A stretch of 64,000 bases of DNA from Squalus acanthias (Eukaryota), in NCBI GenBank assembly GCA_030390025.1, contig CM059431.1, forward strand, positions 113,214,001-113,278,000. The letters run 5' to 3'. How positions within the stretch are numbered: position 1 is the stretch's first letter; every line of letters starts with the position of its first letter. Both the position numbers and the translations under genes were made by a program. The notes under the pieces are model-generated. The model had not been told where the DNA came from. It worked only from the letters and a program-made list of their open reading frames with translations, and searched no databases. Shown piece by piece: positions 23,506 through 56,109 of the stretch.

Positions 23506-23542
23506 AGTTGACGTTTCAGGTCGATGACCTTTCATCAGAACT
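23506..23542 (-). ncRNA. minimal type I hammerhead ribozyme
   Basis: AGTT CTGATGA A AGGTC ATC GACCT GAAAC GTC AACT on the minus strand. Confidence 0.8.
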
Positions 23543-24464: not shown

Positions 24465-25576
24465 CTCTTTCTCTCTCCACGGATGCTGCCTGGCCTGCTG
24501 AGTTTTTCCAGCGTTTTCTGTTGTTATTTCGGATTTCCAGCATCTGCAGTATTTTGCTATAAATACTCAGGCATGGGCCCAGCTTGCTTAGGACATTCCT
24601 CAACAGGAACTAGTGAAGGACACAACTAGATCTCCATGTTGAAAAACAGTTGATTAAAGCTTTGTTTAACGCTTAGACCAAGTGCCTAGTAGTTTTCTTA
24701 CGTCACTCACCTCTGTCAAAAGATTTGTGGATTCAAGCCCCACTCCGGGACTTGGGCACATATTCTAGGCTGACACTTCAGTGTAGTATTAACAAGGTGC
24801 TGCATCAAATCATAGAAATGATAGTACAAGAAGGAGGTCATGTGTCCTTTTGTCCCCGTGCTGGTGCTAGCTACTCTAATCCTACATTTTTCCTTTTCAT
24901 ATACTTATCCAAATCCAAATCCAGGAGCACAAATTTATAACGTTACCCCCTGCATGAATGCAAGTTCTTTCTTTACTCAGCTACCCAGATAGTGCTAATG
25001 TGAAGAAAGGAGAAGAGTACAAAACAATACATTAAAAGGAAGTTGTCTCACTATCAAAAGCAAAACAGACGCTCTACAAGCCTATCTGGAATACATCAGT
25101 AAGCTGGAATTATTGCAGGCGTGTTAATCATATTTCTTTTCTATTTTGTAGAAACTCTGAGGAGGAACATGTTTGGCTTTAGTCGCTTTGGAGTAAAATA
25201 TTTCTGTGGAAAGATTATGGGGTAAAAATTAGGTCGCGCCCCATTTGGGGCGCAAATATCGTCTGGACGCAAATATTAGCGCCTGGCGCTAATTATCGGC
25301 ACTGACAGGAAACTTCACTTTTACCGCCCCGGGAGGTGAGTGGAGCGCTAAAGCAGGCGCGGCACACCTGTCTTAAGGCGCAAAGGCCAAGGAGTGAGGC
25401 GCTAACTCAGCGCACGAGCGCAGCGCAGCTGCTGCCAGTTAGCGAGGGAACACAGACACACTGGCGCCGGACACTTCTTAAAGCGGGGGGGGGCCACTTG
25501 CTCCCCAGCCACACCCTGCTCATTGCAGCCTTGAATCTCAGCCTGGAGAGACCTGTAATCCATTTTGCTGCCAAGC

Positions 25577-27509: not shown

Positions 27510-27803
27510 GAGGTGTGCCAAAATGCTGGTCATTTTTTTATTAAAGGCCGAGGTTCATGGTCGAACTTTTGTTTAGTGTTTTGGACATTATCTCCAGGTT
27601 GTGAGAACCAGTTATGTTATTGACTGTTTTTTTGTGTTTATTTCTATGAGTTTGTCATGAGGAATTGACACACACAGAGTTTGTAAAATAAATAAGTTTC
27701 TGTATTCAAAATATACATGGCTGGTGGTTGGAATTATTGGTGCCTTGGCCGGCTTAGGGGTTGCGTGCTGGGTTGATTAGTGTTTGTAGCAATGGCAGGG
27801 GCC

Positions 27804-28964
27804 CTAGAAGCGGCTTGCTATTAGTCGTTGATGGACGGCCCTTGCAGTTTGACCATTGTGGGCCGCCCTCCTGCCTTGGTGCTGCTGATGATCATCGTCC
27901 TCGTCCTCTTCCTCCTCTTCCTCCTCCTCCTCTGGTGGGGCTACAAGGCCTGGTGGCATTGGCTGGGTCCTGAGGATTGCCATGTTGTGCAACATGCAGC
28001 ACACGAATACGAAGTTCGAAACTTGCTCCGGCGAGTACTGCAGGGCTCCTCCGGAATGGTCCAGACAGCGGAACCGTTGTTTCAGCACGCCGCTTGTGCG
28101 CTCAATAATGTTCCTGGTTGCTTGATGGCTTTCATTGTACCGCAGCTCAGCAGGGGTGTTTGGCGTACGGAGCGGTGTCATCAGCCAGGTGCTCAATGCG
28201 TACCCCTTGTCCCCCAGAAGCCAACCAACTGGCTGATGCGATGCCTCGAAAACTTCTGCCACAGTAGTCTGGCGCAGGATGAAAGCATCGTGGCAGCTGC
28301 CCGGATAGTGGGCATTGACAGCGAGTATCACCTGTCTGTGGTCACAGACCAACTGCACATTCAAGGAATGGAACCCCTTTCTGTTCCTGAATTCCTCTGC
28401 ATTCTCTCGCGGAGCACGCAAAGCCACATGCATGCAGTCAATGGCGCCCTGCACCATGGGGAAGCCCGCTACCCTCGCAAAGCCCAGAGCACGGTCACGC
28501 TGCTTGTCTGGGGTCATAGGGAAAGAGATGAAGTCTCGTCTCCTTCTGAAGAGGGCATTGGTGACCTGCCGGATGCAGCGATGCACCGCAAACTGGGAGA
28601 TATTGGCGAGGTCCCCAACAGCAGCTTGGAATGAGCCAGTGGCGTAGAAGTTCAAAGCCACTGTGACCTTCACTGCCACCGACAGAGACGTCCTGGACCT
28701 CAGCTGAGGCTGCAGATCTGGCTGCAGCAGGTGGCAGAGCTCAGTGACCACCTCCTTGCTGAATCGCAGCCTTCGCAAACACAGCTCCTCGGACATATGG
28801 ATGTAGGAGAGCTGTTCACGATATACCCTGGGAGGGTAAGCTCTCCTGTACATGCGCCTGATGGCCCTCCTCCGTCTGGCCATCATTGCCACTCTCTGTC
28901 TGCGTCTCGGTATCCTCCGATTCAGCTGGAGCAGGACGACGCCCCCAATCATTGCAGCCCCCAT
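27804..28964 (-). CDS. Harbinger DDE transposase, 386 aa, open
   Basis: [58 protein letters not shown], acidic tail. Confidence 0.95.
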   Translation of the reverse strand: MGAAMIGGVVLLQLNRRIPRRRQRVAMMARRRRAIRRMYRRAYPPRVYREQLSYIHMSEELCLRRLRFSKEVVTELCHLLQPDLQPQLRSRTSLSVAVKVTVALNFYATGSFQAAVGDLANISQFAVHRCIRQVTNALFRRRRDFISFPMTPDKQRDRALGFARVAGFPMVQGAIDCMHVALRAPRENAEEFRNRKGFHSLNVQLVCDHRQVILAVNAHYPGSCHDAFILRQTTVAEVFEASHQPVGWLLGDKGYALSTWLMTPLRTPNTPAELRYNESHQATRNIIERTSGVLKQRFRCLDHSGGALQYSPEQVSNFVFVCCMLHNMAILRTQPMPPGLVAPPEEEEEEEEEDEDDDHQQHQGRRAAHNGQTARAVHQRLIASRF

Positions 28965-29681
28965 ATTCTCTTTGCCAGAAAAGTAATGAGGTACAGCAAC
29001 TAAAGTAGCAACAAAGTTAGGATGAACTAGGCAAAACTACCTCACAAAGCGTTGAGTCAATGTAGAAGTCTCTCTCTCTCTCTCTCTCTCTCTCAGAACG
29101 AGTGGTGCATAAATGTCGACCACAGAAAAAGACAGGAAGAGGCCCCCTTTAAATAGCGCCCCCCCCAGCCCCACACCGATTGATAACGTTCCAGTCTTCC
29201 GGTCGTTGGAAGCGCCAGGCGGTAAGGCAGGGGGCGCCACTCAATTTCCGCTCCGGGGCGCCCCAAGGGCGTTGCACCATGGAATGACGTCACAATCTGC
29301 GCGCGCAGGTGGTCGCAGCGGTAAGTTTTAGCGCCGCCGCACAATCTCAAGTTAAGTTCTCGAGCGGCGCAAACAGCGCTGCGCCCGGGCGTTAGCGGCT
29401 TAACGCCCCATTAGCGCCCTCTTAAGGCGCTAACGGGAGGCGCAACCAAGTGAATTTTTACCCCTATGAATTTTCTACACCAACTCCAACAGCAGGTGTT
29501 TATCAATTGTAGTCTGGAACTCATTGTCAGGATTAAGCTAATGCTGGAGATATTCTGTGGGATTGTTGCTTGACACATACTTCCTGCCTATTTTTTGCAT
29601 ATTGCCAAATTCCAGCTGAGGGGAAATGTGTTCTGTGTGCAACAGAATGGAGGACATGTTGAGAATTAACCCTGATACTGA

Positions 29682-31527: not shown

Positions 31528-32294
31528 TAACACATTATGGGTAGTTCATTAATTGTTATGGACTCTTCCTCAACGTTTTTGAAGTAACATCAATGCCACT
31601 TCAGCAGGATGGGCAAGTTCATTATGGGGCCATAATTGGATGCACTGTTAATTACAGCGATGATCAGGCAAGTGGAAGGGTGGGACGTGCTATTGGGTAA
31701 GCAAGTCTTAGGCCTATTTCTCACCAAAAGCACACAGAACATCTTAATACAGTCAGGCTGTGATTTAAGAACAGAGGACGGACATACTTTTCATTCAATC
31801 CTCTTTTTAAGCCTTTGAATTGATGGAAATTCATTGAAAGTACTTGTTGCCAAAAATTCGTTTGCTCAACACTGGGAATGTGCTGAAGTCAATCAGCGCT
31901 CATTCAAAACAGACATTGTTTTGAAGAGTCATAGGGGGAGAAATTCAGTATCGCCCCATTTGGGGCGCAATTATCGGCCGGGCGCAAAGATTAGCGCCTG
32001 CCGCTAATTATCGCCACCGACTGCAAACTTGACTTTTATCGCCCCTGTAGGTGATTGCAGCGCTATATCAGGCGCTACACACCTGTCTTAAGGCACAAAG
32101 GCCGAGGAGCGAGGCGCTAACTCAGAGCGCGGGCGCAGCGCAGGTGCTGTCAGTTAACGATGGAACACAGACACACTGGCGCCAGACAGTTCTTAAAGGG
32201 GAGGGTCGATCTTGCACTCCAGCCACACCCTGCTCATTGGAGCCTTGAATCTCGGCCTGGAGAGACCTGTGCCTAAATCTTCCAGCCAAGGACT

Positions 32295-34039
32295 ATGGAG
32301 AGGGTGAGAGAACGAGCTCAGCACTTCAGCGAGCGGGCCTTGGATGCTCTGGTTGGCGCGGTGGAGCGCAGAAGATCTATACTCTTCCCTGAGAGTGGCA
32401 GGAGGCCTTTGCCGCGCGAGTACAGAAGAGTGTGGAGGGAGGTGGCTCAGAGCGTCTCCTGCAGGAGCATGGTGCCCAGGACCCATGTACAATGTCGAAA
32501 AAAGTTCAACGACCTCACTCGGATCGTCAGGGTGAGTGGCTTTTTTTCAATACCTCTCCATCCCTCCATCTCAACCTCACTCTATGGCCAGAGGGTCTTA
32601 AAACCCCAATGCACAACACTCATCCAACACCTATGGCCCTCTCATGAAACACACACGCACATTCCACACTTTGCATACAGTAAGGGCTATTCACCTATGG
32701 GAGGCACATCAGGCAAGACCATGGCTGTATATTTACTCAGACGCCGTCCTTTTTCTTGCAGGCCAAGCTATCTCATAATAGGAGACAGCAGCAACGGACG
32801 GGTGGAGGGCGGCCTCAGCTGCAACCCCTCAGCGATCTTGAGGCGCGTGTCCACAGGATTGTGGCAAGCCGGGTGATCGGTCCCGTCGCCACTGGAGACG
32901 CCGACCCCATTCTGGACAGCAATGGTAAGGTCATCACCTTTTTGTCCTCTGTCCTTCCACTTGTCCCTCACAACACCAGCCTTTGACACTTTCAATCCAA
33001 CTTACTAAATCGCTGCACTCATTCCTCCCTTACTGCCCCCCTGTCCTCACGCTAAAGCCACTCTTGTACCTCCCTGCTTTCAGATGGTGATTCGCCAGCT
33101 GAGGAGACGGGCCTTCAAGCTGCCAGTGGGAGTGAAGCTGCAGGCGAGGAGGAAGATGAAGGCGGAGCATCAGTGACACCCTCTCCCGAGGAAGCCCATG
33201 CCCACACTGGGAACACGCCTTCCCTGGAGGGGAGCAGGGGGGAAGCGTCTGATGAGGGTGAAGCTCCAGGACCCAGCGGGCTGCAGCAACGCCATGGGGG
33301 TAGGGAAGAACGGGGGCCTTCTCCCCGGAGGGAGAGTATGCCAGCGACTCCTACTGCACTGGACGCAGAGGAGGTGCGGCTCATCGCTGAAATGAACACC
33401 CAGGCGGTGGACATGCACACTGAGCTCATGGGCGCAGTGGGAAAGGTGCCCGAATGCATTGAATCACTGGCAAGGAGTGTGGAGCACTTCGCTGTAGCAC
33501 AGGCGGATGCCACACTAAAGCTTAGTGCTGCAATTCAGTCTCAGACTGCTCTCATGCAGACTCAGATTGAGGCCACGCGAGCACTGACTGCTGCCATCCT
33601 CGATGGTTCGTACACATTTCCCCGGGGCTGTCACCGTGCCGCAGCAGGCCAGCAATCTGTGCTCCAGCAGATTGCTCCGGATGCTGAAGTGCTGCCCCTT
33701 GGGAGTGCCAGTGTGTCGGTCGAGCAGGGAGTTGCTGTCCTCTCTCAAGATGACAGCATTCCTGCTGCCACCACTGTCACTTCTCCACTGCACTTGCCAC
33801 TGCCTGTAGGACAGACTGCTGCCGCCCATGCAGAGTTGGTGCAGTCTGCAGCCGGGCCCTCCAGGCCCAGAGCTGGTCGAGGCCGTCCTTCAAGGGCATC
33901 TGCAGTCTCAGGTTCTGACAATCAGCAGCCTTCCACCAGCCTTGCTGCAGCCACTGAGGTCCCATTACGGAGGAGTAGTAGGGTGGGAAGGGGGGAAGTG
34001 CGCAAGGGAAGGAGATCACCCTCGAAGGGCAAAAAGTAG
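32295..34039 (+). CDS. Harbinger Myb/SANT-like DNA-binding protein, spliced (32295-32531, 32762-32924, 33084-34039), 451 aa
   Basis: Donors AGG|GTGAGT and ATG|GTAAGG, acceptors TTGCAG| and TTTCAG|. 237+163+956 nt join in frame without stops: Myb/SANT domain, RTGGG motif, helical region, basic C-terminus. Confidence 0.9.
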
Positions 34040-34338
34040 GAGGTGTGACAAAATGTTGGTCATTTTTTTATTAAAGGCTAAGGTTCGTGGTCAAACTTTT
34101 GGACATTATCTCCAGGTTATGAGAACCAGTTCTGTTAATGACTGTGTTTTTGTGTTTCTTTCTATTAGTTTGTCATGAGGAAATGACACACACAGAGTTT
34201 GTGAAATAAATAAGTTTTTGTATTCAAAATATACATGTTTGGTCTTTGGAATCATTGGTGCCTTGGCCGGCTTAGGGGTTGCGGGTTGGTTTCATTCATG
34301 TTGTTCTCAATGGCAGAAGCCATTTCCTCAGCAGGGGC

Positions 34339-35499
34339 CTAGAAGTGGCTTGCTATCAGCCGTTGACGGACGGCCCTTGCAGTTTCAACATTGTGGGCCG
34401 CCCTCCCGCCTTGGTGCTGCTGATGATCCTCCTCCTCCTCCTCTTCCTCCTCTTCCTCTTCCTCCTCTGGTGGTGCTCCAAGGCCTGGTGGCATTGGCTG
34501 GGTCCTGAGGATTGCCATGTTATGCAGCATGCAGCACAGAACTACGAAGTGGGAAACTCGCTCAGGCGAGTACTGCAGGGCTCCTCCAGAATGGTCCAGA
34601 CAGCGGAACCGTTGCTTGAGCACGCCGATTGTGTTCTCAACGATGTTCCTGGTAGCTTGATGGCTCTCGTTGTACCGCAGCTCAGCAGGGGTGTTGGGCG
34701 TACGGAGCGGTGTCATCAGCCAGGTGCTCAGTGGATACCCCTTGTCCCCGAGAAGCCAACCAACTGGCTGATGCGGTGCCTCGAAAAGTTCTGCCACAGT
34801 AGTCTGGCGCAGGATGAATGCATCGTGGCAGCTGCCAGGATAGTGGGCATTGACAGCGAGTATCAGCTGTCTGTGGTCACAGACCAACTGAACGTTCAAG
34901 GAATGGAACCCCTTTCTGTTCCGGAAATCCTCGGCATTCTCATGCAGAGCACGCAAAGCCACATGCGTGCAGTCAATGACGCCCTGCACCATGGGGAAGC
35001 CCGCTATCCTCGCAAAGCCCATAGCGCGTTCATGCTGCTTGTCTGGGGTCATGGGGAAAGAGATGTACTCTCGTCTCCTTTTAAAGAGGGCATTTGTGAC
35101 CTGACGGATGCAGCAATGCACCGCGAACTGGGAGATATTGGCGATGTCCCCAGCAGCAGATTGAAATGAGCCAGTAGCATAAAAGTTCAGAGCCACTGTG
35201 ATCTTCACTGCCACCGACAGAGACGTCCTGGACCTCAGTTGAGGCTGCAGATCTGGCTGCAGCAGGTGGCAGAGCTCAGTGACCACCTCCTTGCTGAAGC
35301 GCAGCCTTCGCAAACACTGCTCCTCAGACATATGAATGTAGGAGAGCTGTTGACGATATACCCTGGGAGGGTAAGGTCTCCTGTACAGAGGCCTGTTGGC
35401 CCTCCTCCATCTGGCCATGATTGCCACTCTCTCTCTGCGTCTCTGTGTCCTCCGATTCAGGTGGCGCAGGACGACGCCCCCAATCAGTGCAGCCTCCAT
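34339..35499 (-). CDS. Harbinger DDE transposase, 386 aa, intact motifs
   Basis: [60 protein letters not shown]. Confidence 0.96.
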   Translation of the reverse strand: MEAALIGGVVLRHLNRRTQRRRERVAIMARWRRANRPLYRRPYPPRVYRQQLSYIHMSEEQCLRRLRFSKEVVTELCHLLQPDLQPQLRSRTSLSVAVKITVALNFYATGSFQSAAGDIANISQFAVHCCIRQVTNALFKRRREYISFPMTPDKQHERAMGFARIAGFPMVQGVIDCTHVALRALHENAEDFRNRKGFHSLNVQLVCDHRQLILAVNAHYPGSCHDAFILRQTTVAELFEAPHQPVGWLLGDKGYPLSTWLMTPLRTPNTPAELRYNESHQATRNIVENTIGVLKQRFRCLDHSGGALQYSPERVSHFVVLCCMLHNMAILRTQPMPPGLGAPPEEEEEEEEEEEEEDHQQHQGGRAAHNVETARAVRQRLIASHF

Positions 35500-36083
35500 A
35501 GTCTCTTAGCAAGCAAAATTACGAAGACCAAAAACCAAAGTACCTGCCAAGTTATGATCAGTAGCCAAAACTACCTCACACAGCGTTGACTCAATGCAGA
35601 AGTCTCTCTTTCTCTCTCTCCGAATCTCTCTCTCTCTCTCTCAGAACGAGTGGTGCAAAAATGTCAACCACAGAGAAAGACAGGAAGAGGCCCCCTTTAA
35701 ATAGCGCCCCCCCAGCCCCACAGCGACTGGTAGCGTTCCAGTCCTCCGGTCGTTGGTTGCGCCAGGCGGAAAGGATGGGGGCGCCACTCAATTTCCGCTC
35801 CAGGGCGCCACAAGGGCATTGCACCCTCGTATGACGTCAAGATCTGCGTGCGCAGGAGATCGCGGCGGTAAAGTTTAGCGCTGCCGCAAAATGTCTAGTT
35901 AAGTTTGCGAGCGGCGCAAACATCGCTGCGCCCAGGCGCTAGTTGCTTTGCGCCCCATTAGCGCCCTCTTAAGGCGCTAACGGGAGGCGCAACCAACTGA
36001 ATTTTTCCCCCATAGAGTTATACAGCACAGAAAGAGGCCCTTCGGCCCATCGTGTCCGCGCCGGCCATCAAGCCCTGTCTATT

Positions 36084-41385: not shown

Positions 41386-41419
41386 GCACCATTTAAATTG
41401 CAACAGGCATCATTCTCAA

Positions 41420-44045
41420 GATGGACATCTCATTTGGTATACCTCTCTATCTGCCGATTTCTAAGGAGGAAGAGGAGATCAGCAAAGGCATGAGAGAGAG
41501 GAGCATTTATGCCAACAATGGTCTTGCTGCAGCCACCTTTACTCAGTCTCTCGTGTCTACAAATCCAACTTGACACATCCGGAGAAATGTTCATTCACCA
41601 CCTATCCATCACGATGGAGGCAGTCACAGAAATATGTCGTCTCCTTGAACCAGACTGTTCGATGACGGGGACAGCTCTCCTAGTGCCTGTCAAGCCTTGA
41701 ACTTCTTTGCGAATGGATTATTTTAAGCAACGGCAGAGGAAATATAGCAATTTTGCAACCAATAGTGTACTGATGCATCAAGCAGTTGCTTTGCTAATCA
41801 AGTCTATCTCCTTCATGCCTTCTTTATAGAGACTGGGCAGCAGCCTGACAGAGCACTGCACTTTCTCCATTTTGCAGGTTTTCCCAAAGTGGAGGGCAAA
41901 ATTGATGGCATGTGTGTGGCCATACAGCGTCCATACTTCCAATCCCACAGCCTTCATGAACAGAAAGGAAATCCACTGCACTAATGTGCACCAACCTGTG
42001 ACCATAGGCAGAAAATTATACATGTAAATGACCATTCCCTGGTAGCAATCATGACTTCTTCATTTTATGCCAATCTGCGATGCTATCATTATATCAAGGG
42101 CAAGACTGAATCGATGGCTCCTCGGGGAGCAAGGTACCTTTCACAGACCTGGTTCATGACCTCCTTGAGACTGCCATGACCAAGTGCTGAGGAGCGATAA
42201 ATTGAGGTACACATAGCCACCAGGATTCTGGTCAAATATATCATTAGAATGTTGAAACAAAGGGCTGAATTTTGCTGGCGCTCAGAGGGCGGGGTTGGAG
42301 GTGGGTCCGCTGTCAAAATAGCAAAGAATGACAGCAGGTAGGGAACCCGCTGTCAACCCGCCTCCACACGAGTCTCCCAGGTGTCGGGTCTGTCGGCGCT
42401 GAACAGACCCGACACCAAGCGGCGGGGGAGGCAATTCACATCATTAAATGGGTTGTTAACATCCAATTAACTGTTATTTTAAGCCTGCTATCTATTCCAT
42501 TAGCATCATTGCCCTTGAAAATATCTCACCTTGGTCCTCAGAATCCCACCATGATCAGCCTCAACACCAGCATCACCGGGCACACCAGAAGCAATAACAA
42601 TAACACCAGCCTTCTCTGCAATCAACTGATGCTGGACAGGACACAGGGCTTCAGCACCCGACCACATTGCCGTCCGGGACCCAGGGATGGCCTCAGCATG
42701 GCCAGATTTACTTCACTTGACGCTGTACACCCTGAATTCCAAATGATGTGCCAGGTTGGCACCACCCCACACCAACACCATAAAACATCCCTACAATGCC
42801 CAAGCCATTCCTTTCACACTCATCACCATTTGGGCGGGGGGGGGGGGGGGGGTGGTTACCGTTATGTCTCACCATTCACTACAACTCACTAAGCCACTTC
42901 CAAAGGTGCACACAAATCTGTCCAAGAATGGAAAGTGCTAAAAGTAAAGGTTTCAATGTTTGACAGCATATTACCAGAAACTTCACATGAACATTGGCTA
43001 AACCACCCATGTGTCTACCCTTGTGTGTTGTTAGTTGATATGCTTGCAGTAGGGTGAGTGTGAGGGGTGGCTAGTGAAATGGGGAAGTGATAATGTAGAT
43101 AGAGAGGGATGGGTGGAGGTGCAAGGTAAGTTGGTGTGAGTAAAGATGTGCAGGAGTAGGGTAGGGAAGGCAGAGTGATGTGGATGTGCTGAGTGGCACA
43201 GCAGGATGAGGTTGAGTGTGGCTTGGCAGTAACATTTTGTGATCTACTCAGATCATTGAAAGGCAGCCTGGTCCTCCTGACGACATCCCTGCTTGTGCCC
43301 TCCTGTGCAATGTGCAACCAGGCTGCGTTGATCTCCTGGGGATGTCTCTTCCGCCCATGGGAAGGGCAGAGAACCTCCCTGCGTGCTTTGACTCCCTCCA
43401 TAAGCATATGGAGGGAGTCATGAGAGAGCCTGGGTGCAGCCGTGCACCTTTGTGCAGTGCTTGTCAGTGTTTGCAGCACCTCAATGCTGTAGAATACTGA
43501 CAGCAGAACTGTCAAGATCAATTTGGTCATGGCCCTTTTAAGGAAACCGGCTGATGACACGTCATCAAATGACCTCGTCAGACCCACTTCCTTTTAATTG
43601 GCCGGGAACCTCGCAGGGCGGGCTTAACTAGCCCAATCAGAGGAAAATCACTTGGAGAGTGCGGGCTGCAGTAGGCAGCGGGCTGGGACCGCGACACCGA
43701 CCTCGGCCGCACTGGACTCGCCTCGGTCAGTGAAATCGCGGCCAAACGTTCAGATGCTTGGGCAGATTGGTGGGTTGCAAAGGTGTTCCTGTATAGCCCT
43801 TCTTCTTTCTCAAAGATCATTGTAATCTGTAGTCTGCTGCCTGTTGCACAACCTCACTGTTCAAATGGACATTACCACGAGGCAGGTAGGAGAGGAAGCC
43901 CAGGCACAACTATTGACAAAGAACACGGCGATTCAGCCGGAAGACATGTCTCTTGAAACTCAATTGCAAACAGGATGGGTTTAAAGGGAACTCCTGATGA
44001 ATGAAACCTTCACAGAAGTGCCTGCTCCATTAGTCAATCTGCGTA
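41420..44045 (+). pseudogene. old decayed Harbinger transposase split by the 42262-43743 insertion
   Basis: Remnants TEICRLLEPD, AGFPKVEGKIDG, NRKE, PGSNHD, WLLGEQ; flanks rejoin as TTG AAA CAA A|CG TTC AGA TGC TTG (LKQTFRCL); later LHNL. Outer boundaries approximate. Confidence 0.75.
42262..43743 (+). mobile_element. internally deleted Harbinger related to family A
   Basis: TSD AAA; weak TIR (10/16); colinear blocks homologous to ~8899-9030, 10070-10395 and 11825-12440, including Myb exon 1 (AAPRLSHDSLHMLMEGVKARREVL). Confidence 0.85.
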
Positions 44046-44055
44046 GGAAGTATAA

Positions 44056-44507
44056 AAAGAAAGACTTGCATTTATATAGCACCCTTCACGACCTCAGGAC
44101 GTCTCAAAGTGCTTTACAGCCAATGAAGTACTTTTGGAGTGTAGTCACTGTTGTAATGTAGGAAACGCAGCAGCCAATTTGCACACAAGCTCCCACAAAC
44201 AGCAATGTGATAGTCTGTTTTTTAGTGATGTTGATTGAGGGATAAATATTGGCCAGGACACCAGGGATATCTCCCCTGCTCTTCTTCAAAATGGTGCCAT
44301 GGGATCTTTTACATCCACCTGAGAGAGCAGACGGGGCCTCAGTTTAACATCTCAACTGAAAGACAGTACCTCTGATAGTGCAGCACTCCCTCAGTACTGC
44401 ACTGGAGTATCAGCCTAGATTTTGTGCTCAGGCCTCTGTAGTGGGACTTAGAACCCAGAACCTTCTGAATCAGAGGCGAGGTGCTGCCAACTGAGCCACA
44501 GCTGACA
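44056..44507 (-). mobile_element. full-length Deu-domain SINE
   Basis: Same family as 13712-14190. Confidence 0.9.
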
Positions 44508-45859
44508 TAAGCCTTGATGTGGAAATTTGTAAAAGGAACTGACCTCACAAAATGAAAACAAGGTTAGCTATGCAAGCCATATGCGCAATTAGTGGCATAG
44601 TCAACCCTTATGTTGCTACTTAGTTATCTAATGTCTTTGAGTTCTACATTTTTGAAATTAGAGGCTACATTTTCCATTCTTGTTTTGCTGGTGTAGAACA
44701 TCACAAACCAGGACCACATATTGAAATCCCAAGCACAGAGGATAGCATAGCCCATCCAATTTTCCATCCATCTAAAGTTTTAATAAATGGATGGAGAATT
44801 GGATTGGTTGTGTAACAGGCGTGTGATGCTGTGTGCCTAGTATTCCAATATGTGCTCCTTGCGTGCAATGCTCTGCGCCAGAAGTACAAAAGCAGAAAAT
44901 TACCCCACAAGTTTGTATCCAAACAATGAAAAAGGCTGAATTTAATTTCATTAAAAAAGCTGGACCGTTATTTTTGTAAAAAAAAATCCTTTAATCCATT
45001 AAAATGATGGATGTTTATTAAAAGCTCATTAAAAACTCAGGTAATGGAACCCATATGACCATTGAAACAATGGACAAGACTGCTCTGATTTACTCCTGTT
45101 AGCCAGAAACCTGGTTAGTATAACAGAACTGCTTGTGTTTAGTAGTTTGTGGGGATTGCTGTAAAACACTATTTAGATACAATGATAAAGTTATAATTTG
45201 TAACAAGCTGCTGTTCTTTCAATATGCCAAATTATGAATTCCATTCAACACATGCAATAGTTAATTCAGTAACAGTGATTGGCAACCACATCTTTATTTA
45301 AAGACTGCATTCAGAGCAAATTCTATTTACATGGCTTTGCTTCTATATGCCTGATAGTTTTGGTACATTTCTTGGTACTGTTTGCACATAGTCTAAAACC
45401 AGATGTAGATCTTTTTACAATTACACTTGCTGTTTGCACACTGCAGGAACTCTGGGAGATGTGCAATTTGTTTCTCTCACGCATGCTTCAACACTTTATT
45501 TACGTCTGTGGAAGGAACAGTCTTGATGAGCAAAACAGCCTTTTCTCTACCCCCTCCATTCTGAGTGAGATTGTCAATTAGTTCTTAAAAAAAGGTTTCG
45601 GTATTTTAAACTAAATCTGTTAACACCGAATTACTTAAAGAACTGAATATGTGAATTTTGAAAACAGCAGATGATTCACATTTCTTAGCAGGCAAGATGG
45701 ATTTTAAACTCAACCAGGTCATGTTTGCTATCCAGTGACATGAGTGGATACAAGTGGGAACAGTATCTGGTGCGCCTGTGATGCCCTCCATCCTACAATA
45801 GCTTGCCATCATTCACTATCTCGACTCACACTAGAAGATTGGCCACATGGGTGAGGTGA

Positions 45860-46313
45860 AGAAAGACTTGCATTTCTATAGCACCTTTCACGACCACCAG
45901 ATGTCTCAAAGCGCTTTACAGCCAATGAAGTACTGTTTGGAGTGTAGTCACTGTTGTAATGTAGGAAACGTGGCAGCTAATTTGTACACAGCAAGCTCCC
46001 ACAAACAGCAATGTGATAATGACCAGATAAGCTGTTTTAGTGATGTTGATTGAGGGGTAAATATTGGCCAGGACACCGGGGACAACTCCCCTGCTCTTCT
46101 TCGAAATAGTGTCATGGGATCTTTTACATCCACGTTTGAGAGAGCAGACAGGGCCTCGGTTTAACGTCTCATCCGAAAGACGGCATCTCCGACAGTGCAG
46201 CACTCCACTGGAGTGTCAGCCTAGATTTATGTGTTCAAGTCTCTGGAGTGGGACTTAAACCCACAACCTTCTGACTCAGAGGCGAGAGTGCTACCCACTG
46301 AGCCACAGCTGAC
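45860..46313 (-). mobile_element. full-length Deu-domain SINE
   Basis: Same family as 13712-14190. Confidence 0.9.
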
Positions 46314-46885
46314 ACTGTATTTGATTACTGTGGGCGCCTTTGGAACAGTATCCCGGCAGGAGATAGCATTAAATGCAAACTGTTGTCGAGTCAACGCTGT
46401 CAGCAAAGGTAGGGAGAAAAAGCAAAAAAATTGGAAGAATTTTTTTTTAGAAGTATAAAACTCGCTGATATTCCATGGACCATTGATAGATCCATCGCTT
46501 GAGGTCCCCTCACTTATTGATATTATATAATAATTCCCATTTATACCTTCCCCCCTTTTTGTCACATTTTCTTGTTCATCAGAAAATATTAAGATGAGTA
46601 TAAAAGGGGTAGTTTTCTGACTTGGTGCTATCGTATCCTTGCCTACCAGGCGTGCACATCAGAAAATCAGGCACATAATGCCCACATTTTCTGATCATTC
46701 AGGAAATCATGGGCACTGCACGATTTCCGACATGTGTTCCTGGCAGGCAAAGCTCCTCGCTGGGAGTGCGGACTCAAAAATTATCCTCAAGAGTCTCAGA
46801 TGTTTATGTACGATGCAGCATGCATCACAAAAATACAAAATGAGGTGAGGTTTGATTGTAGACTTCTGTAAACTGTTGTCATCTG

Positions 46886-47427
46886 CGTGCAGTTCCGGTC
46901 ACCACATTACAGGAAGGATGTGATTGCACTAGAGAGGGTGCAGAGGAGATTTATGAGGATGTTGCCTGGGCTGGGGAATTTTAGCTATGAGGAAAGATTG
47001 GATAGGCTGGCGTTGTTTTCTTTGGAACAGAGGAGGCTGAGGGAAGACCTAATTGAGGTGTATAAAATTATGAGGGGCCTAAACAGAGTGGATGGGAAGG
47101 ACCTATTTCCCTTAGCAGAGGGGTCGATAATCAAGGGGCATAGATTTAAAGTAATTGGTAGGAGATTTAGAGGGGATTTGAGGAGAATTTGTTTTCACCC
47201 AGAGGGTGGTGGGGGTCTGGAACTCACTGCCTGAAAGGGTGGTCGAGGCAGAAACCCTCATCACATTTAAAAAGTACTTGGATATGCACTTGAAGTGCCG
47301 TAACCTACAGGTCTACGGACCAAGTGCTGGAAAGTGGGATTAGGCTGGATAGCTCATTGTTGGCCGGCATGCACAAGATGGGGCCCAATGGCCTCCTTCT
47401 GTGCTGTAAATTTCTATGATTCTATGA
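46886..47427 (+). mobile_element. 5'-truncated CR1
   Basis: SPHYRKDVIALERVQRRF...RRLREDLIEVYKI and (TTCTATGA)n tail. Confidence 0.92.
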
Positions 47428-48340
47428 TAGACAGCCCCTTTTTGCCTGGGCTATATGCGATCAAATAATTCATGAGCGATACCAGTCACCTCGACCACAA
47501 CTCCCCATTCACCAACGGTTCCACACTCCTTACCTTTCCTCTGTCACTGACCATTGTATCGTCCTCTTTCCGACAACGTAAAAATAAAAGCCAACAGAAA
47601 ATGCACATTCCAAGCAATGTTCCCTCTAATCTGAGGTCTAAGTGCGCGGTCCCATTAAATTTGTTGCACGGCCACACATGCTCGGTATCTTCCCGCGGCA
47701 GCAGCTGGTGAGTGGCCTGCTTGGGACCTTCCAATTGGTGCGCGACCGCATCAGGTCCAATCCAAGTTTATAAATTAAATCATGAAACAATGCATACAAA
47801 ACTAAACTGATCACCCTTGTGCATTCCCTGAGTGCCTGTCTTCCGTGTGTCTTTGCCTCTCCTAGTGCTCCTAAGAGGTGCTTCCCCAGTGCCAGCAGCA
47901 TGGGTGATGGAAGGCTGCTGACCTTCAATTGAGGAGACTGCAGATGGCCTTGGAGGGCCACCTCGAGCAGCTCTGGGACTAGAAGGCCCAGTTTCAGACT
48001 GCACCATCCCAGCCTGGGCTGGCTGGCTGACAGGCAACAGCAACGGCACTGGCGGAGTGGCAGGGGTGGTAGCACGAATGCTGTCATCCTGAGAGAGGAC
48101 AGCCATTTTGTGCTCCATGGAGCCACTGCCAGTCTCCCGGTGCGGCATCTCAGCAATCCTAGTAATCTGTTGGGAACAGATTGCTGGACTGCTGTGACAC
48201 CCTGGAAGGCCCTTTGATCACTGGTATCAAGAGTCATGATGGCAGCAGTCTGAGCTTCTACAGCAGCACCTAGACCTTTGCTGGAAGCTGCTTGTGCTGC
48301 AATGGAAGCTGAGACATTGGCCATCAGATGCTGCATCATG

Positions 48341-48769
48341 CTCAGTATCAAGAGGAAAGTGGGAAATGGCTCCCTGGAGCAAACCAAGGGCACGGGTGCC
48401 GCGGGCTCGTTCAGGCTCGCTAAGAAGGAATCCCAGTGGAAAGAGGGAAAGAAGGTGAAGAAACCAGCAGCCAAGAAATCTGCAGTAAAGAAACCAGCAG
48501 TCAAGAAATCTCCAGCTAAGTAACCAGCAGCCAAGAAATCTTCAGCTAAGAAACCAGCAGCGAAGAAAACGAGCACCAAGAAGGCACCATCTTCAAAAAA
48601 GACAGCAAAAGCGGCGGCTAGGAAGAAGAAGGCGGCGGCGAAGAAGCCCAAGAGCCCCAAGAAGGCCACAGGCGGAATGGTGAAGGTGGTCAAGAAGGCG
48701 AAAAAACCGAAGGCCAAGGCCAGGCCCAAATCAGCAAAGCCTCAGAAAGAAGCACCCAAAATAAAATAA
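48341..48769 (+). pseudogene. H1: histone H1 fragment (end of globular domain + Lys/Ala/Pro-rich tail)
   Basis: [29 protein letters not shown], then [11 protein letters not shown] repeats; one in-frame TAA (48521-48523); natural stop 48767-48769. Confidence 0.93.
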
Positions 48770-48794
48770 AAAGGGCAACTTGTAAACATCTGAA

Positions 48795-48840
48795 CCAAAG
48801 GTTCTTCTCAGAGCCACCTACGTCTTTCCAAAAAGAGCTG
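48795..48840 (+). promoter_or_regulatory. histone 3' stem-loop and histone downstream element (U7 site)
   Basis: CCAAAGGTTCTTCTCAGAGCCACCTA (consensus CCAAAGGCTCTTTTCAGAGCCACCCA) followed by AAAAGAGCTG at 48831-48840. Confidence 0.9.
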
Positions 48841-50146
48841 ATCGCGGAATCAAATGATCCATGTCCTGGGGCTGGGCTCAGATTCTAGATTGAAATCATT
48901 TCAAATGAACCCAGGATCCCTGGTGACTCGCTGACATTCGCTGCACCCACCCCTCCCCCAGTGTCTGCAGTAAAACAGAGAGAGAATGGGATGTCCGGGC
49001 CGAGCCTTACTGTAATTGGGGGTAAGTTCCACAGGTGTGCTGATGTAGGTGACCACCCGCTCCATGTTGGAAAGGATGAGCTCTGAGCTCTGCACCAAGA
49101 CCTGTGCCAAGTTGGTGCTTGACTCCTCCACGCTCCTTGACATTAAGAGTAGCCTTTCTGGCAGGCTTCCCAGTGTGCCAAACATTTGGGTGTGTACACC
49201 CATCAGCACTTCTTCTGTATCCTGGCCCAGCGAAGTCCTCATCTGAGTCCTCTGCAGCAAAATTAGTGTGCAACCTCACCCTCCGGCGAGCTTGCACCTG
49301 CTCTAGCCTTTCCCCCCGCCCTGGCTCCTGTGCACTTGTGCACTGAGTCTCACCACGTGCAGATCCCTCCTCTATCCTAGCTTCTAAAATACGTGCAGTG
49401 TCAGTATCTGAGCTGGTGGCTGCGAGTGTAAGATTGAGTGACGGTGTCTCTTTATTGTCACTGACTTCTTCCTCTTCCTGCATTGCCTGGGCAGGTTAAA
49501 GTTCTTGGGTATCTGAAATGAAAAAGGGACAAAGGTTGGGTTGTGGTGAGGGGAGAGGAGAAAGTAAGAAGTGTGTGCTTACACCCTCAGCAGCTTCTCA
49601 CTCAGAAGAGATTGAGGGATGAGGGAGAAGTGGGATGGGAGACGGAGGATTAGGTATGCGCATACCCTCATCATCAATCGCTTCAGCGCCGCCAGTGGCC
49701 ATGGCCTCAGTGATACCCCTTCCCATGATGGTCCGCACTATCTCCTCTATGCATGTTAAAACATGCAGGCGCGCTGGTCCTCCTCCAGTTCTTTGTTTCT
49801 GCCTAGTGTTGTGTGCCATTTTCTCCTGCAAGAAAGGGGGAAGAGTGACAGTGAGTGTCGTGCAAAATGTTTGGGTGATGTGGCTGTCCTGGTTGAATAG
49901 CTGCCAGTGTGTGCGAGCTGTAAGTTGTGGGTGGGAGGCTTGCAACAGTGCTAAGTGTGTAAGTGTGAAGTAAAGCACATGAATGTTAGGGTTGAGTCCT
50001 GATTGATAGAGATTGTTGGTAGGTGAGTGATGGGGATGTAGTGAATTGAGCAGTGGATGAGGCTATTGGTGTAGTTGGTAGGATATGCCATTTGAAGATG
50101 AAGTCACTTACCTTGACAACTCGTGTGAGATCATCAAACTTCTTCC

Positions 50147-51253
50147 TTTCAAAATCTTTCAAGATCCCAACAGTCTAGTCTTTGGCCCTCCATTCACCAC
50201 AACATTTCTGCAGCTACCGATCTGCTCAACCACACCCTCACCTCCACCTTTGATGCCCTAGTCCCCATTAAAACCATTACTCTCTCTCACCCTTTCCCCC
50301 TGGTATGGCCCTCAACTCCGCTCCCTTAAGTCCAAGGGACGCAGACTTGAAAGTATATGGCGGTCTAGCAATATCCAGTATTGGATGCGCAGAAATTTCC
50401 TCCAACTAAATATTGGGAAGACCAAAGCCATTGTCTACAGTCCCCGCCACAAACTCCATTCCATATCTACCAACTCTATTACTCTCCCTGGCAACTGTCT
50501 GAGGCTGAACTAGACTGTTCGCAACCTTGGTGTTGTATTTGACCCTGAGATGAGCTTCCGACCACATATCCATACTATCACTAAGACCGCCTACTTCCAC
50601 CTCTGTAACATTGCCTGACTCTGCCCTTGCCTCAGCTCATCCGCTGCTGAAACCCTCATCCATGCCTTTGTTACCTTTAGACTTGACTATTCCAATGCAC
50701 TCCTGGCCAGCCTCCCAACTTCCACCCTACATAAAGTTATCTCATCCAAAACTCTGCCGCCCGTATCCTAACTCTCTCCAATTCCCGTTCACCCATCACC
50801 CCTGTGCTCGCTGACCTACGTGTGCTCCCAGTTGAGCAATGCCTCGATTTAAAATTCTCATCCTTGTTTTCCAATCCCTCCATGGCCTCGCCCCTCCCTA
50901 TCTCTATAACCAGCTCCAGCCCTACAACCCTCCGAGATCTCTGCACTCCTCTAATTCTGGCCTCTTGCGCATCCCCTGATTTTAATCGCTCCACCATTGG
51001 TGGCCGTGCTTTCAGCTGCCTGGGCGCTAAGCTCTGGAATTCCTTCACTGAACCTCTCCGTCTGTCTACCCTTCACTGCTTCTTTAAGACGCTCCTTAAA
51101 ACCTATCTCTTTGACCAAGCTTTTGGTCACCCATCCTAATGTCTCCTTACATGGCTCGGTGTCAAATTTTATTTGATAACGCTCCTGTGAAACGCCTTGG
51201 GACGTTTTACTATGTTAAAAGCGCTATATAAATGTAAGTTGTTGTTGTTGTTG
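50147..51253 (+). mobile_element. L2 LINE 3' portion with internal deletion
   Basis: QLNIGKTKAI, RNLGVVFD, LDYSNALL, TIGGRAFSCLGAKLWNS, FKTLLKTYLF; (TTG)n tail. Confidence 0.9.
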
Positions 51254-51427
51254 AGATCCATTATCATGGGGCTAAAATCACCAGCATTATAATAAGCAAA
51301 GGAAAAAGTACAAAGACTTGATATTATAGAAAATCTTTGACCTCAATGTACAGTGTACATAATTTAGGGTGTAATTTCCTCTGATAATTCTTTTACAAAA
51401 ATGTAGAAATGCACCATCAGGAGACAC

Positions 51428-51660
51428 CCAGAGAGTGGTTAGAATGTGGAACTCGCTACCACAAGGAATAGTTGAGGCGAATAGTATAGATGCTTTTAAG
51501 GGGAATCTAGATAAACACATGAGGGAGAAAGGAATAGAAGGATATGTTGATAGGGTGAGATGAAGTAGGGTGGGAGGAGGCTAGTGTGGAGCATAAACAA
51601 CGGCATCGACCAGTTGGATCAAATGACCTGTTTCTGTGCAGTAAATTCTATGTCATTCTA
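51428..51660 (+). mobile_element. CR1 3' fragment
   Basis: TQRVVRMWNSLPQGIVEANSIDAFKGNLDKHM plus UTR. Confidence 0.85.
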
Positions 51661-52132
51661 GTACCCATGGAAAGTGTTCATTGAGGATTTATCTATATTA
51701 AGTGCTCTTCTGAGTGTTGCTCCTAGCCAAAACTCGATTTTAAAAGTAAAAAGAGGACAACTTTTACTTGTGAAGGCCCTGTTAAGGATCAAGTTATAGA
51801 CTAATTCTGAAATACCTGTGCAGAATTACATGAAGAGAGGGGCAGCAATGACAAGTGCGTTCCGAACTCCTGGTCAGATATTTAGTCAATTGGACGAAGG
51901 GCAAGATTTCAGGGTACCATTATAACACTGACAGAAGTGAAGAGTACAGAGAGGTTTTCAGTCCCAGAGCAATGGGTGTAGCATATACTGCTGAGTACCT
52001 CTTAGTGTGGCAGGCTCAGGGTAAGAACATGTCTCGGGGGTGCAGAGAGTATAGATGATGCAGAGTTACAGAACAAAATGTCCCAGGCATCATTGCTACC
52101 GTAACAGAGTTAGACAGATGAGTGAACTTCTA

Positions 52133-52277
52133 CAAAAGCAAAAGGCTGCGGATGCTGGAAATCTGAAATAAAAACAAAAAATGCTGGAAATACTCAGCCG
52201 GTCAGGCCGTATCTGTGGGGAGAGAAACATGCTGCCTGACCTGCTGAGTATTTCCAGCTTTTTCAGTTTTTATTTTG
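52133..52277. mobile_element. Penelope pLTR-derived fold-back lacking the hammerhead core
   Basis: Same tail and arm sequence as 824-1058, folding back near 52228; no clear TSD. Confidence 0.75.
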
Positions 52278-52461
52278 GTAAACATCTAATTGTTTGCACC
52301 ATGTTTTTAGTGGCAAGGATCAACATGACAGGTGCACCACCAATGACTGGTTTTCTGATGTTTCAACTAATTAAATCGTACTGCACAGAATCATCGGTTT
52401 AAAAAATGCACAAACTCACTATTTTGTTAATAGGGCATCATAAACTATGAAAGGAGAGCAG

Positions 52462-52630
52462 GGGGTAATTTTAACTTTTCATGATGGTGTAAAACGGCCG
52501 CCCGTTATACACCCTGCCCGATGTTCCTCTCTATTGAAATCAACGGGAAAGAGAAGGGGGCGGGATATATAATGGGCCGTCGATCAGATATCGCTCGTTT
52601 TACACCATCGCCCAAAGTTAAAAATACCCC
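52462..52630. mobile_element. 169-bp hairpin MITE (Harbinger-like)
   Basis: GGGGTAATTTTAACTTT..GATGGTGTAAAACG / CGTTTTACACCATC..AAAGTTAAAAATACCCC; TSD CAG. Confidence 0.8.
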
Positions 52631-53299
52631 CAGCATTTTGAAAAGAGAAGAGGAAAGTATACCCCCTAAGTACAGCACCACTAGATGGCCCTCCAGCATA
52701 AGAGCTTGTGCGCACAATTTGCAAATTCAAATGCTTTTGAATTGAATTTGTGTGAATATGATTGTCACATAATAGCAATTAATCTTTCATTACTGTACAT
52801 TGTGATAATGCTGTTTATAGACACACGCAGACAACTTTGATCGCACAATCTCTTCTGATTTACACTCAGATTAAAATGATGCAGGTCTATGGTTTTTTTT
52901 AAAGAAACTGGCTGAAAATGTTGTTTAATCTTCACATCCTGTACTCCTGTGAATCACAACACTGAAACAATGAGAGGGGAAAAGCTCCAGGTGGGTCCAT
53001 ATTAACACCCAAAGCATGTTTTGGGTGTTAATATCCTCCAACTTTACACATTGAAAGAGTCAAGTAAATGTTACTTGCACGTGACCCATAATCAGCAAGT
53101 GTACTGAGGTAAAGTGGAATTTCGATTCCTCATGGGGACTATGATAGAATTTAGTTCCAAAGTGACCGTTGCAATCAACGTAAGAGATTGTTTGCAGCTC
53201 CCATAAGATACAAAAAATGGTTCTGTACAATTTTCTAGTTTCGACTTTCTACATTGTACCTTTTGACATAATTGCCTAGCAAGTCAATTGCGACGCACC

Positions 53300-54360
53300 C
53301 GTTTTTCAGGCGGTAGGAAGTGCGCGCTCATTGCGAGCCGCAAGTGCGCCACCCGCCATATTGGATTGGACTTCTCCATAGGCGTCCAGGGCAGACGCCA
53401 GAACTGTGGAAAACACTGAATAATGTTTTCAAATTAGGGTGCCGTGCTTGTTAACCCTTTTCTGTTATTGGGCTGCTTCAGCACCTGACTCGTCACCTGA
53501 TAGACTCGCCCAGCATCTTGTGGCGCTAACAGGCAGGAAGGACCCTTCACCAGCGCTATTTAAAGGGATCGTTCAGTACTTACAGGTGAGTTGCTGGGTT
53601 GTCATTTCAGGCTGCTGGTTAACTTCTGGGTGTTTTTTTTGGCCTGTTGTCTGACTGTGGAAAGTAAATTTTGACTGCTGAGAAGAAGATTTTGCTGGTG
53701 TTGCACTGTTTTTGGCTGCCTTCTGAACAGTTTGACTGCAGTCATGGGTGGTCTGGTAGGGCAGCCTTTTACTGAAGGAGGGGGAGCAGCAAGGAAGACA
53801 GGAGAGAGCAACTGTGACAAGAGGGAGTCGGAGGAAGGCACTGCGTAGGAGGCCATAACCCACAGCAGGGTGCACATCGCCTGCAGTAATTTAACTCAGG
53901 AGCAATGTATGAGGCACCTACGCTTCACCAAAGAGCCTGTCACTGAGCTATGTCACCCGCTGCAGCCACAGCTCGAGTCTCGCACCAGGGCTTGTGGGCA
54001 GTCACTGCCTGTGGCTATCAAGGTCACCGTGGCCCCTTAACTTTTATGTCACGGGCTCCTTTCAGGCTGCAGCAGGTGACATCAGCGATCCCAGTTCGCA
54101 GTACACCGTTATAATAGGGAGGTCACCGAGGCTCTCTCCGCCAGGAGGAACACCTACGTCTCGTTCATGGACAGAGCGAAGCAGGACGAGAGAGCACTAG
54201 GCGCCGCACACATGGCAGGCTTCCCCAGGGTGCAAGGTGCCATAGACTGCATCCACATTGCCTTGCGTGCTCCCCATAACCAGCCTGGCAGCTTTATCAA
54301 TCAAAAGGCTTTCCACTCCCTCAATGTACAGCCAGTTTGCAACCAGGGGCAGCACGTCAG
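53300..54360 (+). pseudogene. truncated, frameshifted Harbinger (subterminal region + 5' half of transposase)
   Basis: EQCMRHLRFTKEPVTELC, LPVAIKVTVA, FYVTGSFQAAAGDIS, AGFPRVQGAIDCIHIALRAP, FHSLNVQ. Confidence 0.85.
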
Positions 54361-54726
54361 CAGTTCCGTCCCCGGATCAACACTACAATGACGGTATAAA
54401 TGTAGCCTGAATCAATTACTTTAGCTATGGTTCCGCTGTTTTGTGAGTGGCTTGCTTGTGGTACCAGTCTGCCAGCAGGTACTCATTCATGCAGTGTTCA
54501 GGTTCCACTGATGAGATCACAGTGCACTGTAACTAAAACATGTATGAAATTTGTGAACCATGATGCAAAACATTAATTAGATATTATTTACAAGAAGAAA
54601 GTGTAGGCAGTGAACTCCATAAGAAATGGTGGGGAAGGAAAGGTCAGTGTAACTTGTCTGCTTGGTATTGCTCAAAGAATTCTGTCAGATTCCTTTTGCC
54701 TTCTCTTTCCAGCATTAACACATTAA

Positions 54727-55479
54727 GGGAGAAAAATTGGGTTGCTTTGCGCCTCTCATTAGCACCCTAAGAGGGCGCTAACGAGGGGCGCAAAGCAACT
54801 AGCGCCTGGGCGCGGCGCCGCCCACGCCTCCCACGAAATTCAGCGTGAGGTTAGCAGCGGCGCTAACTGGTCGCGCCCTGCGGTGCTGTGCCACCGGCGA
54901 TGACGTCATCGCCGTGCGCAGCGCCCCGCTCGCGCCCCGCTCGCGCCCCGCTCGCGCCCCGCTCGCGCCCCAGCCGTGATCTTCGGGAGCGGCCCCTGAC
55001 TTACCGCTGGACGCTATGTCCGACGGGGTCAGGGGAGCCTACCTGCGGCCGGGGAGGTGCTATTTAAAGGCGAGGGGTGGGGTGGCCATTTTTGTTGCTG
55101 GCCGCCTGTCAGCACCTGCCCGCATTGAACGGCGCCCCCCGCGGAGTGCCGGCTGCGCTCCAAGAGCCCGGCACTTCTCTTGAGTGCCGGGCTCTTTTGC
55201 CGGCACTCCCGATCCCCGGGGGCCCAGCTGGGTCCCGGGTCATGCTGCAGAAAGCCCCTCCCCTTTAAGAAAAGGGGAGGAAGGCTTTCAATGCCGCGAC
55301 GCTGCGGCACGTAGCACTGCGATATTGACTCGCAGCGCCCCAAGAGGGCTGCAGGGCGCTTCCAGTAGCACCCTGCTTCCCTCTTGGGTCGCAACCACTC
55401 AATTTCCGGCGCGGGGCGCTAATTTTAGCGCCCGGGCGAAGTTAGCGCCCCAAATGGGGTGCTACTCAATTTTTAGCCC
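54727..55479 (-). mobile_element. 753-bp GC-rich Harbinger MITE related to family B
   Basis: TIR GGGAGAAAAATTG / reverse complement GGGCTAAAAATTG; TSD TAA; shares TTAGCGCC/GGCGCTAA subterminal arrays; (GCGCCCCGCTC)x4 at 54921-54964. Confidence 0.88.
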
Positions 55480-56109
55480 TAAAGGCTGTAAAATTTCAAA
55501 ATGCAGAGCAAACTTTGATAGTTCTTGTATTGTACTCTGAGGAAAGAAAGAAAGGACTGCATTTATATATCACCTTTCACAACCTCAGGACGTTCCAAAG
55601 TGTTTCATAACCAATGAAGTATTTCTGAAGTGCAGTCACTATGTAATGTAAATGTTCTATGTGTCTATTAGAAAATACCAAGCTGCTTTCGTATACCTCC
55701 TAACGTCTAATTGGATAGCTCTGTCAAAAGAGCCAGCGCGGGTACAATGGGCCGAATGGCCTCCTTCTGTGCTGTACGATTCTACGATCTGGTTTTCGAG
55801 CAATATTGATGACGGCCTGGGACAGTTTGTCCACCAACCCACCTACTTGGCCAAGAATAGTGGATGGCACAGTGTGATCAGAAAAGGGGAGAAAGTGCAT
55901 TTTAAAAGGAGGGTGATCTAATCCTCAAAAAAAAACTAAAATATGTGACTGAAACCACTTGTTTACCAAAAAGTCTTTAATGCTTGATAGATTCTCTAGC
56001 ACATTTGCCTATGCAATATTCCTAAGCAAATGTCTTCATGCACTGAAGAGTTTCTTTTTAGCAATTACATTAAGATAAATTTTATTCTTATGTTAACATA
56101 ACTGTATCA

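Follow-up and report, generated by a model that had tools for sequence, protein, structure and literature searches.

A truncated histone H1 segment inside a dead Harbinger Myb-like gene of shark-like DNA, probably a single break-repair insertion

How does part of a histone H1 gene, together with its RNA-processing signals, come to lie inside an exon of a DNA transposon? The window studied here, by which we mean the whole stretch of 64,000 nucleotides of shark-like, repeat-rich DNA that was analysed, holds such a piece in antisense orientation within exon 3 of a minus-strand Harbinger Myb/SANT-like gene. A first-pass annotation had read it as H1 DNA captured by gap repair, perhaps in a Pack-type element that then multiplied. 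We favour a single, transposition-independent insertion in which H1 chromosomal DNA filled a gap during break repair with no help from a transposase, and we put the probability of this reading at about 0.65. Contigs from 4 of 23 public sequencing runs were compared with the region 47800-49600. The insert consists of the following features.

48341 to 48769, plus strand: 5'-truncated H1 coding piece, comprising the last third of the globular domain and the lysine-rich tail (Pfam, translation, protein matches)
48800 to 48815, plus strand: histone 3' stem-loop (Rfam RF00032, fold, variant row at 48802)
48832 to 48840, plus strand: purine-rich stretch like a histone downstream element (HDE), of the U7-pairing kind, 16 nt after the stem (by sequence)
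48841 to 49020, plus strand: flank downstream of the H1 gene, past the mature mRNA end (multi-copy depth in 4 of 4 runs; a contig over 48775-48934)
49021 to 49025, no strand assigned: five ambiguous nucleotides, either host (codons L-T) or donor flank (contig joints, and tblastn matches reaching 49021)

The frame at 48341-48769 matches the Pfam Linker_histone domain (PF00538) over positions 46-74 of 74 (E 2.8e-6) and encodes the end of the globular domain and the whole basic tail. Its best protein matches are shark H1-like proteins (best E 4.4e-34), and the nearest named H1 proteins come from Pristiophorus japonicus and Heptranchias perlo. The insert begins at about residue 78-80 of full-length H1 proteins of 211-228 aa, which leaves the last ~140 codons; the piece is H1, as had been proposed, and the "C-terminal half" of the earlier description is nearer two-thirds. 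In a tree built from 36 of 121 rows (shark and ray matches plus the insert), it groups with Pristiophorus H1 at a weak 85/66, a placement that would go no further than "shark-type H1". Among the 120 H1 protein matches, none carries host-derived sequence at its N-terminus and three extend outside the H1 frame. Sequence and tblastn comparisons with the rest of the 64 kb found nothing else that matches the insert, and no H1 donor. Translation places a premature stop at 48521-48523, ahead of the normal stop at 48767-48769, and 5 of 18 sites fit CpG decay, these sites being hand-picked from the 40 variant rows listed. The patch most likely makes no H1 protein and has decayed since its capture, as its stop codon and a wobble in its stem (below) suggest.

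Replication-dependent histone mRNAs acquire their mature 3' end by a cut between the stem-loop and the HDE. The Rfam Histone3 model (RF00032) scores 29.4 bits at 48795-48840 (E 5.4e-6), which is below its gathering score of 34, and the whole window holds no Histone3 match at the gathering score. The predicted fold has a 6-bp stem and a 4-nt loop, and as a 27-mer it is unusual (z -2.87; 2 of 200 shuffles as good), while a longer 51-mer around it is not (z -0.61). One C-G pair of the stem is a U-G wobble in the window, and the family contigs that cover 48802 have C at this position. By its consensus, we take 48832-48840 to be the HDE, and the insert continues for about 180 bp after it. Rfam, fold and sequence thus bear out the stem-loop, HDE and downstream flank that had been annotated in the insert. 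A metagenome scan with the motif returned nine loci. Apart from weak stretches of low complexity, each matches the insert over no more than 20-27 nt around the motif, and we rejected all nine as chance.

Is this flank the flank of a real H1 gene? P0036, a Pristiophorus H1-like model with a frame that continues beyond the usual coding end, gives a match at 48792-48854 that spans both the stem-loop and the HDE (14/21 residues, E 2.6e-7; one of 120 proteins tested). Record 28 of run X6 bridges the cleavage site over 48775-48934; it differs at 20 positions and by one gap, and the final 21 letters of the contig do not fit. Across the four runs, median post-HDE depth is 471, 263, 3215 and 12630 versus 1116, 520, 2370 and 2305 in the H1 coding bins. 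The flank is therefore multi-copy like the H1 gene; the last pair, from run X10, has the flank deeper than the coding part, which speaks against an H1 flank throughout, and in that run the deeper part may be a separate repeat. The variant and indel rows listed for the flank extend to 48981, with the last 40 nt beyond that range. The proposed colinearity with an H1 locus thus stands for the near flank, to about 48981 at most. Run X6 also contains a joint 48538>48943 (one contig, depth 99, short side 24 nt) that links H1 tail coding sequence to flank 404 nt further on, perhaps from an internally deleted H1 copy.

These results bear directly on the template. The colinearity of stem-loop, HDE and near flank with further H1 copies of sharks means that either genomic DNA or a transcript not yet cleaved served as template, as the first-pass annotation had suggested. 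A copy of mature histone mRNA is excluded, since the insert runs past the cleavage site and the HDE, and the earlier verdict that this is not a processed pseudogene of such an mRNA stands with it. Splicing is no help in separating a DNA from an RNA template here, since the H1 piece is intronless.

The host of the insert lies between two LINE-like fragments and is laid out as follows.

46883 to 47427, plus strand: LINE-like 3' fragment, left limit of the host remnant (self-BLAST repeat)
47430 to 47809, no strand assigned: probable host region past the Myb stop (by eye, uncertain)
47810 to 48340, minus strand: host exon 3 downstream of the insert (tblastn P0124, E 2.8e-39; resembling Myb genes carried by two complete Harbingers of the window)
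49026 to 49512, minus strand: host exon 3 upstream of the insert (tblastn P0122, P0123, P0124; splice edge by eye)
49666 to 49825, minus strand: host Myb-like exon 2 (tblastn; splice edges by eye)
50112 to 50147, minus strand: last 12 codons of Myb exon 1 (tblastn, 10/12 identical, E 0.024)
50150 to 51253, plus strand: LINE-like fragment, right limit of the host remnant (self-BLAST repeat 50692-51253; left edge by eye)

The LINE-like fragments have no Pfam match; we take the left one to be of CR1 type and the right one of L2 type. Host exon 2 matches its counterpart in two Harbingers, at 26131 and 32687 (tblastn E 7e-13 and 2e-11). The family assignment follows from related full Harbingers, which carry PF13873 and PF13359 (DDE_Tnp_4), and from the relative P0125, which has PF13873; the proteins closest to the host come from Heterodontus, Heptranchias and Pristiophorus. 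The copy is heavily damaged. Exon 3 has a frameshift near 48173 (indel rows) and, in its upstream part, an in-frame stop near 49497 and an extra, frame-shifting base near 49208, and the rest of the Myb domain is absent, residues 1-80 of full-length P0125 finding no tblastn match in the host. A transposase C-terminal tip may be seen by eye at 47432-47485, where tblastn gives no match, and the tblastn search for transposase across 44000-53500 was equally negative. Searches of 44500-53500 and 47400-50200 found no inverted repeat around the host, and a scan of 44000-56000 for terminal inverted repeat (TIR) motifs gave five matches, none at the host's ends. The apparent lack of terminal repeats is a good but not absolute negative; the 25 longest pairs of the inverted-repeat scan include the 16-nt TIR of the element at 31934-36011, and lack that of the element at ~25220-29464. 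Without the TIRs, the 3-bp target-site duplication (TSD) or the transposase of a PIF/Harbinger element, the host copy is a dead remnant.

Three further observations concern the host. At about 47615-47758 a possible small foreign insert lies in the remnant, flanked by an 8-bp near-duplication (7/8); its start resembles that of hAT-type elements, and no matching right end was seen. A protein search with the upstream host piece matched 0 of 54 candidates, and a crude exon scan for a gene around the host gave four candidate intervals, none convincing or near. The annotated Heptranchias model P0123 has a SAMD1 winged-helix domain fused to sequence from exon 3 of a Harbinger Myb gene, either as a gene-model artefact or through a transposon exon taken into a host gene.

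The point of insertion can be read almost to the base. Across the site, the intact host relatives P0123, P0124 and P0127 read VE-PT-MM and P0122 reads MD-PS-MM, where the window reads VE-LT, the insert, and (S)MM; in tblastn, P0123, P0124 and P0127 match the host over 49206-49021 and then from 48342 on. The empty site is present in the sequencing runs too. The joint 48340>49026 occurs in all four (4, 4, 5 and 3 contigs, in some of which four different letters intervene), and among the joints listed 48342>49026 occurs in three of the four (two letters between where shown), as does 48339>49021 (one shared base). In addition, 179, 129, 241 and 228 records have loose ends at 48340 that go on as host sequence. 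The host thus lost 0-4 nt, and the left junction has an overlap of 1-3 nt, a length not beyond chance. Because 49021-49025 could be host or donor flank, the insert measures 681-685 bp. The annotated position inside Myb exon 3, in opposite orientation, is hence correct to within 5 nt at the right edge. Between the two junctions there is no exact direct repeat, only off-register 3-mers, and the 3' junction has no A/T run of at least 5 and no AATAAA or ATTAAA after the stop; the absence of a TSD and of poly(A) noted earlier is confirmed on both counts.

The same junctions might in principle have been made by the assembler, as a chimera of two repeats, a Harbinger and a histone cluster. Both partners are high-copy, and among the contigs listed for the four runs none bridges either junction. 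However, both junctions fall within 0-4 nt of one host position and no Ns are present, the insert has a decay pattern of its own, and a single-copy contig of an independent run is 318/325 identical to it. We regard a chimera as very improbable.

We therefore return to a genuine insertion, for which a repaired break is the preferred origin. We envisage that a double-strand break struck one copy of a very abundant Harbinger family and would have been patched with a copy, about 0.68 kb long, taken from the chromosomal DNA of one H1 gene in the tandem histone clusters, either by template switching or by end-joining with a DNA patch, the transposase being uninvolved. Such a patch would begin mid-gene and pass through the stem-loop and HDE into spacer DNA, its capture presumably falling after the host had settled and its decay coming later. 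Gap-repair capture, as first proposed, agrees with junctions that look like gap or break repair; its other half, Pack-type mobile amplification, finds no support. The choice of site needs no special cause, since Harbinger-like DNA makes up about three tenths of the window (20,223 of 64,000 bases, ~32%, in six spans with edges set by hand). One point against a DNA gap-fill is that no H1 donor lies in the window, versus 57% of sources within 15 kb for the animal Pack-TIR elements described in PMC8277862 (Tan et al., 2021).

Another point against it is that an open reading frame truncated at its 5' end, with the 3' region whole, fits reverse transcription as well. An uncleaved, nascent or read-through H1 transcript could have been copied by a LINE enzyme at an existing break, giving a 5'-truncated tailless copy, with internal priming about 200 nt beyond the normal 3' end. 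LINE-like fragments are frequent in the window, experimental templated insertions are described as enriched for transcribed sequence and fewer with reverse transcriptase inhibitors (Onozawa and Aplan, 2016; PMC5110952), and read-through histone transcripts are reported from Drosophila mutants in which processing is slowed (PMC4896052). Against this, wild-type flies are described in the same source as having little Pol II downstream of histone genes, and the insert has no TSD, whereas tailless copies were required to show one of 8-35 nt in the study that describes them (Noll et al., 2015; PMC5322556). Neither an A-rich priming site nor a poly(A) signal is present in it. We consider an RNA patch unlikely, though the likeliest competitor of the DNA patch that we prefer.

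Whether the insert arose once or was multiplied depends on its relatives. The window holds near-intact relatives of the host: two near-complete Harbingers at 25220-29464 and 31934-36011, ~90% alike over 3.4 kb, look like members of a recently active family. Each has a Myb domain and terminal inverted repeats and, judged by eye, seems to be bordered by a 3-bp target duplication. Their transposase frames of 389 and 385 aa are free of stops and match DDE_Tnp_4 at E 2e-37 and 5e-39. The host family is also extremely abundant in the runs. H1 could have been captured by an element with its ends still in place and then transposed, leaving several junction copies.

The depths and the insert's own alleles point the other way. 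In the four runs the ratio of host to H1 depth is 80, 154, 43 and 8 (summed contig depth, a rough guide only). At the premature stop (48521), all covering contigs (6, 1, 15 and 16 in the four runs) have the intact allele, and at 48382, 48409, 48867 and 48873 every covering contig differs from the window. Run X1 is the most informative. Its record 2 (325 nt, depth 9.45) has seven differences from the insert, lacks the premature stop and is seemingly the sole carrier of seven window alleles, as judged from total-minus-variant depth at the rows listed; its record 3 (depth 14.4) is identical to host 49049-49250, with 0 of 202 differences and the frameshift base included. Organism A, the source of run X1, thus has this same host copy and about one copy of the insert lineage. 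Record 2 could represent either the insert's orthologue or the gene that donated it; a Fisher test of its differences (7/325) against those in the neighbouring host contig (0/202) gives p 0.047 on selected contigs. Organism A may be a sister species, because even the best run contains a fraction of 0.43 of the region's words, and none reaches half. Contigs lose rare variants, and none of those listed bridges either junction; both points weaken the evidence for a single copy from the runs.

In the four runs, then, there is no sign that the transposon amplified the insert, whose alleles are at single-copy depth or missing, and we infer that it is single-copy in the window's own genome as well. 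Several insert copies are not borne out by these depths, and nor is an amplified, mobile H1-carrying element by a host without terminal repeats, nearly all of Myb exon 1 or a detectable transposase. The first-pass annotation had held that a junction present once would reduce the case to a one-off insertion, and alleles found only at single-copy depth lead to that outcome. An amplified Pack-Harbinger is further opposed by the host's frameshifts, by the absence of high-depth insert alleles from organism A despite its possession of the same host copy, and by a protein search across the left junction, a weak test, in which 1 of 304 candidates matched and proved to be an uninterrupted host relative. 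Multicopy cases are in any event 4 (1.4%) in PMC8277862. We judge amplification highly unlikely and retain the single break-repair insertion.

Other elements illustrate how crowded the window is. A ~54 bp unit is repeated in tandem at 25954-26177, in Myb intron 1 of the first near-complete Harbinger, and apparently not in the second. A third, older Harbinger of another subfamily (8366-12566) has Myb and transposase genes that face each other and a nearly open transposase frame, and further decayed Harbinger remains, in which transposase and Myb match in part, lie at 41400-43750 and 52850-55480. A 177-bp element at 52458-52634, with 39-nt inverted arms and Harbinger-like ends, is a MITE. Finally, a 439-bp inverted repeat, 100% identical, at 23442-23880 and 24090-24528 surrounds 209 bp. 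A minus-strand frame there resembles a GIY-YIG endonuclease end, and the whole of 23442-24528 suggests a young Penelope-type insertion.

What does the locus mean? Most likely it is one more dead templated insertion of an ordinary, known type, carrying little weight by itself. It is nevertheless a clean chondrichthyan example, with its empty site known almost to the base, and it teaches that an insert in a transposon need not be a transposon capture where elements fill a third of the DNA. In the literature, an H1 piece in a Harbinger or in sharks was not found among titles or abstract openings. A bolder reading, for which we see very little chance, is that an H1 3' cassette was captured while the Harbinger was mobile and carried to other loci in the shark lineage. 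This would be a vertebrate Pack-Harbinger family spreading a complete histone stem-loop/HDE processing signal, a dispersed cassette that could cut host transcripts wherever it inserted in sense orientation; junction copies elsewhere would make it a rare animal multicopy Pack element with an RNA-processing signal. Less bold, and doubtful rather than far-fetched, is the idea that the locus is a fossil of germline break repair templated by uncleaved nascent histone RNA.

Comparison with known systems places the insert among several described phenomena. In animals, 370 Pack-TIRs have been described from 100 genomes, four of them multicopy; single-copy cases have a median microhomology of 2 bp, and most formed in elements that were already in place (Tan et al., 2021; PMC8277862). 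As in a single-copy Pack-TIR of that survey, non-TE DNA within the range of 100-5000 bp lies at an internal breakpoint of one TIR-transposon copy; the gap is tiny, the microhomology short and the copy apparently single. A human case in the survey comes from a histone (H2B) locus, and the word Harbinger is absent from the survey's main text. The same TIR element flanks our insert on both sides, the host being contiguous in all four runs and in P0122-P0124 and P0127. The definition given there requires both flanks to include at least 10 bp of the element termini, whereas the host termini are lost here, and a unique parental copy of at least 90% identity, for which X1 record 2 (318/325) may be either donor or orthologous insert. 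Unlike many Pack-TIRs, the insert has no source inside the window. Because the termini are gone it falls outside the formal definition, and it works like a single-copy Pack-TIR.

The insert can also be compared with dispersed histone genes. An orphon is a dispersed piece of a tandem gene family (definition and citation of Childs et al., 1981, in PMC3225859), mussel H1 orphons appear among the titles in the reference list of PMC4477615, and large histone clusters are described from elasmobranch genomes (bioRxiv 10.1101/2025.06.08.657570). With the H1 family at depths of hundreds to thousands in the runs and no other H1 in the 64 kb, the insert is an H1 orphon fragment. Like histone orphons, it derives from a tandem histone family, lies away from the cluster and includes spacer DNA; unlike them, it is partial, dead and nested in a transposon remnant, and circle reintegration and template switching are both conceivable. 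The human tailless histone retropseudogenes, which are L1-dependent and have TSDs of 8-35 nt (Noll et al., 2015; PMC5322556), resemble it as 5'-truncated histone copies without a poly(A) tail. They differ from it in that the insert has no TSD and extends ~200 nt past the mature 3' end, and by that definition it is neither a processed nor a tailless retropseudogene.

In junction structure the insert also resembles the class 2 templated sequence insertions, which Onozawa and Aplan (2016; PMC5110952) prefer to derive from RNA templates. These are patches from a distant locus, known as human polymorphisms, with no TSD, poly(A) or cryptic signal and with microdeletion, microhomology or untemplated bases at the junction, and in each junction feature tested the insert is like them.
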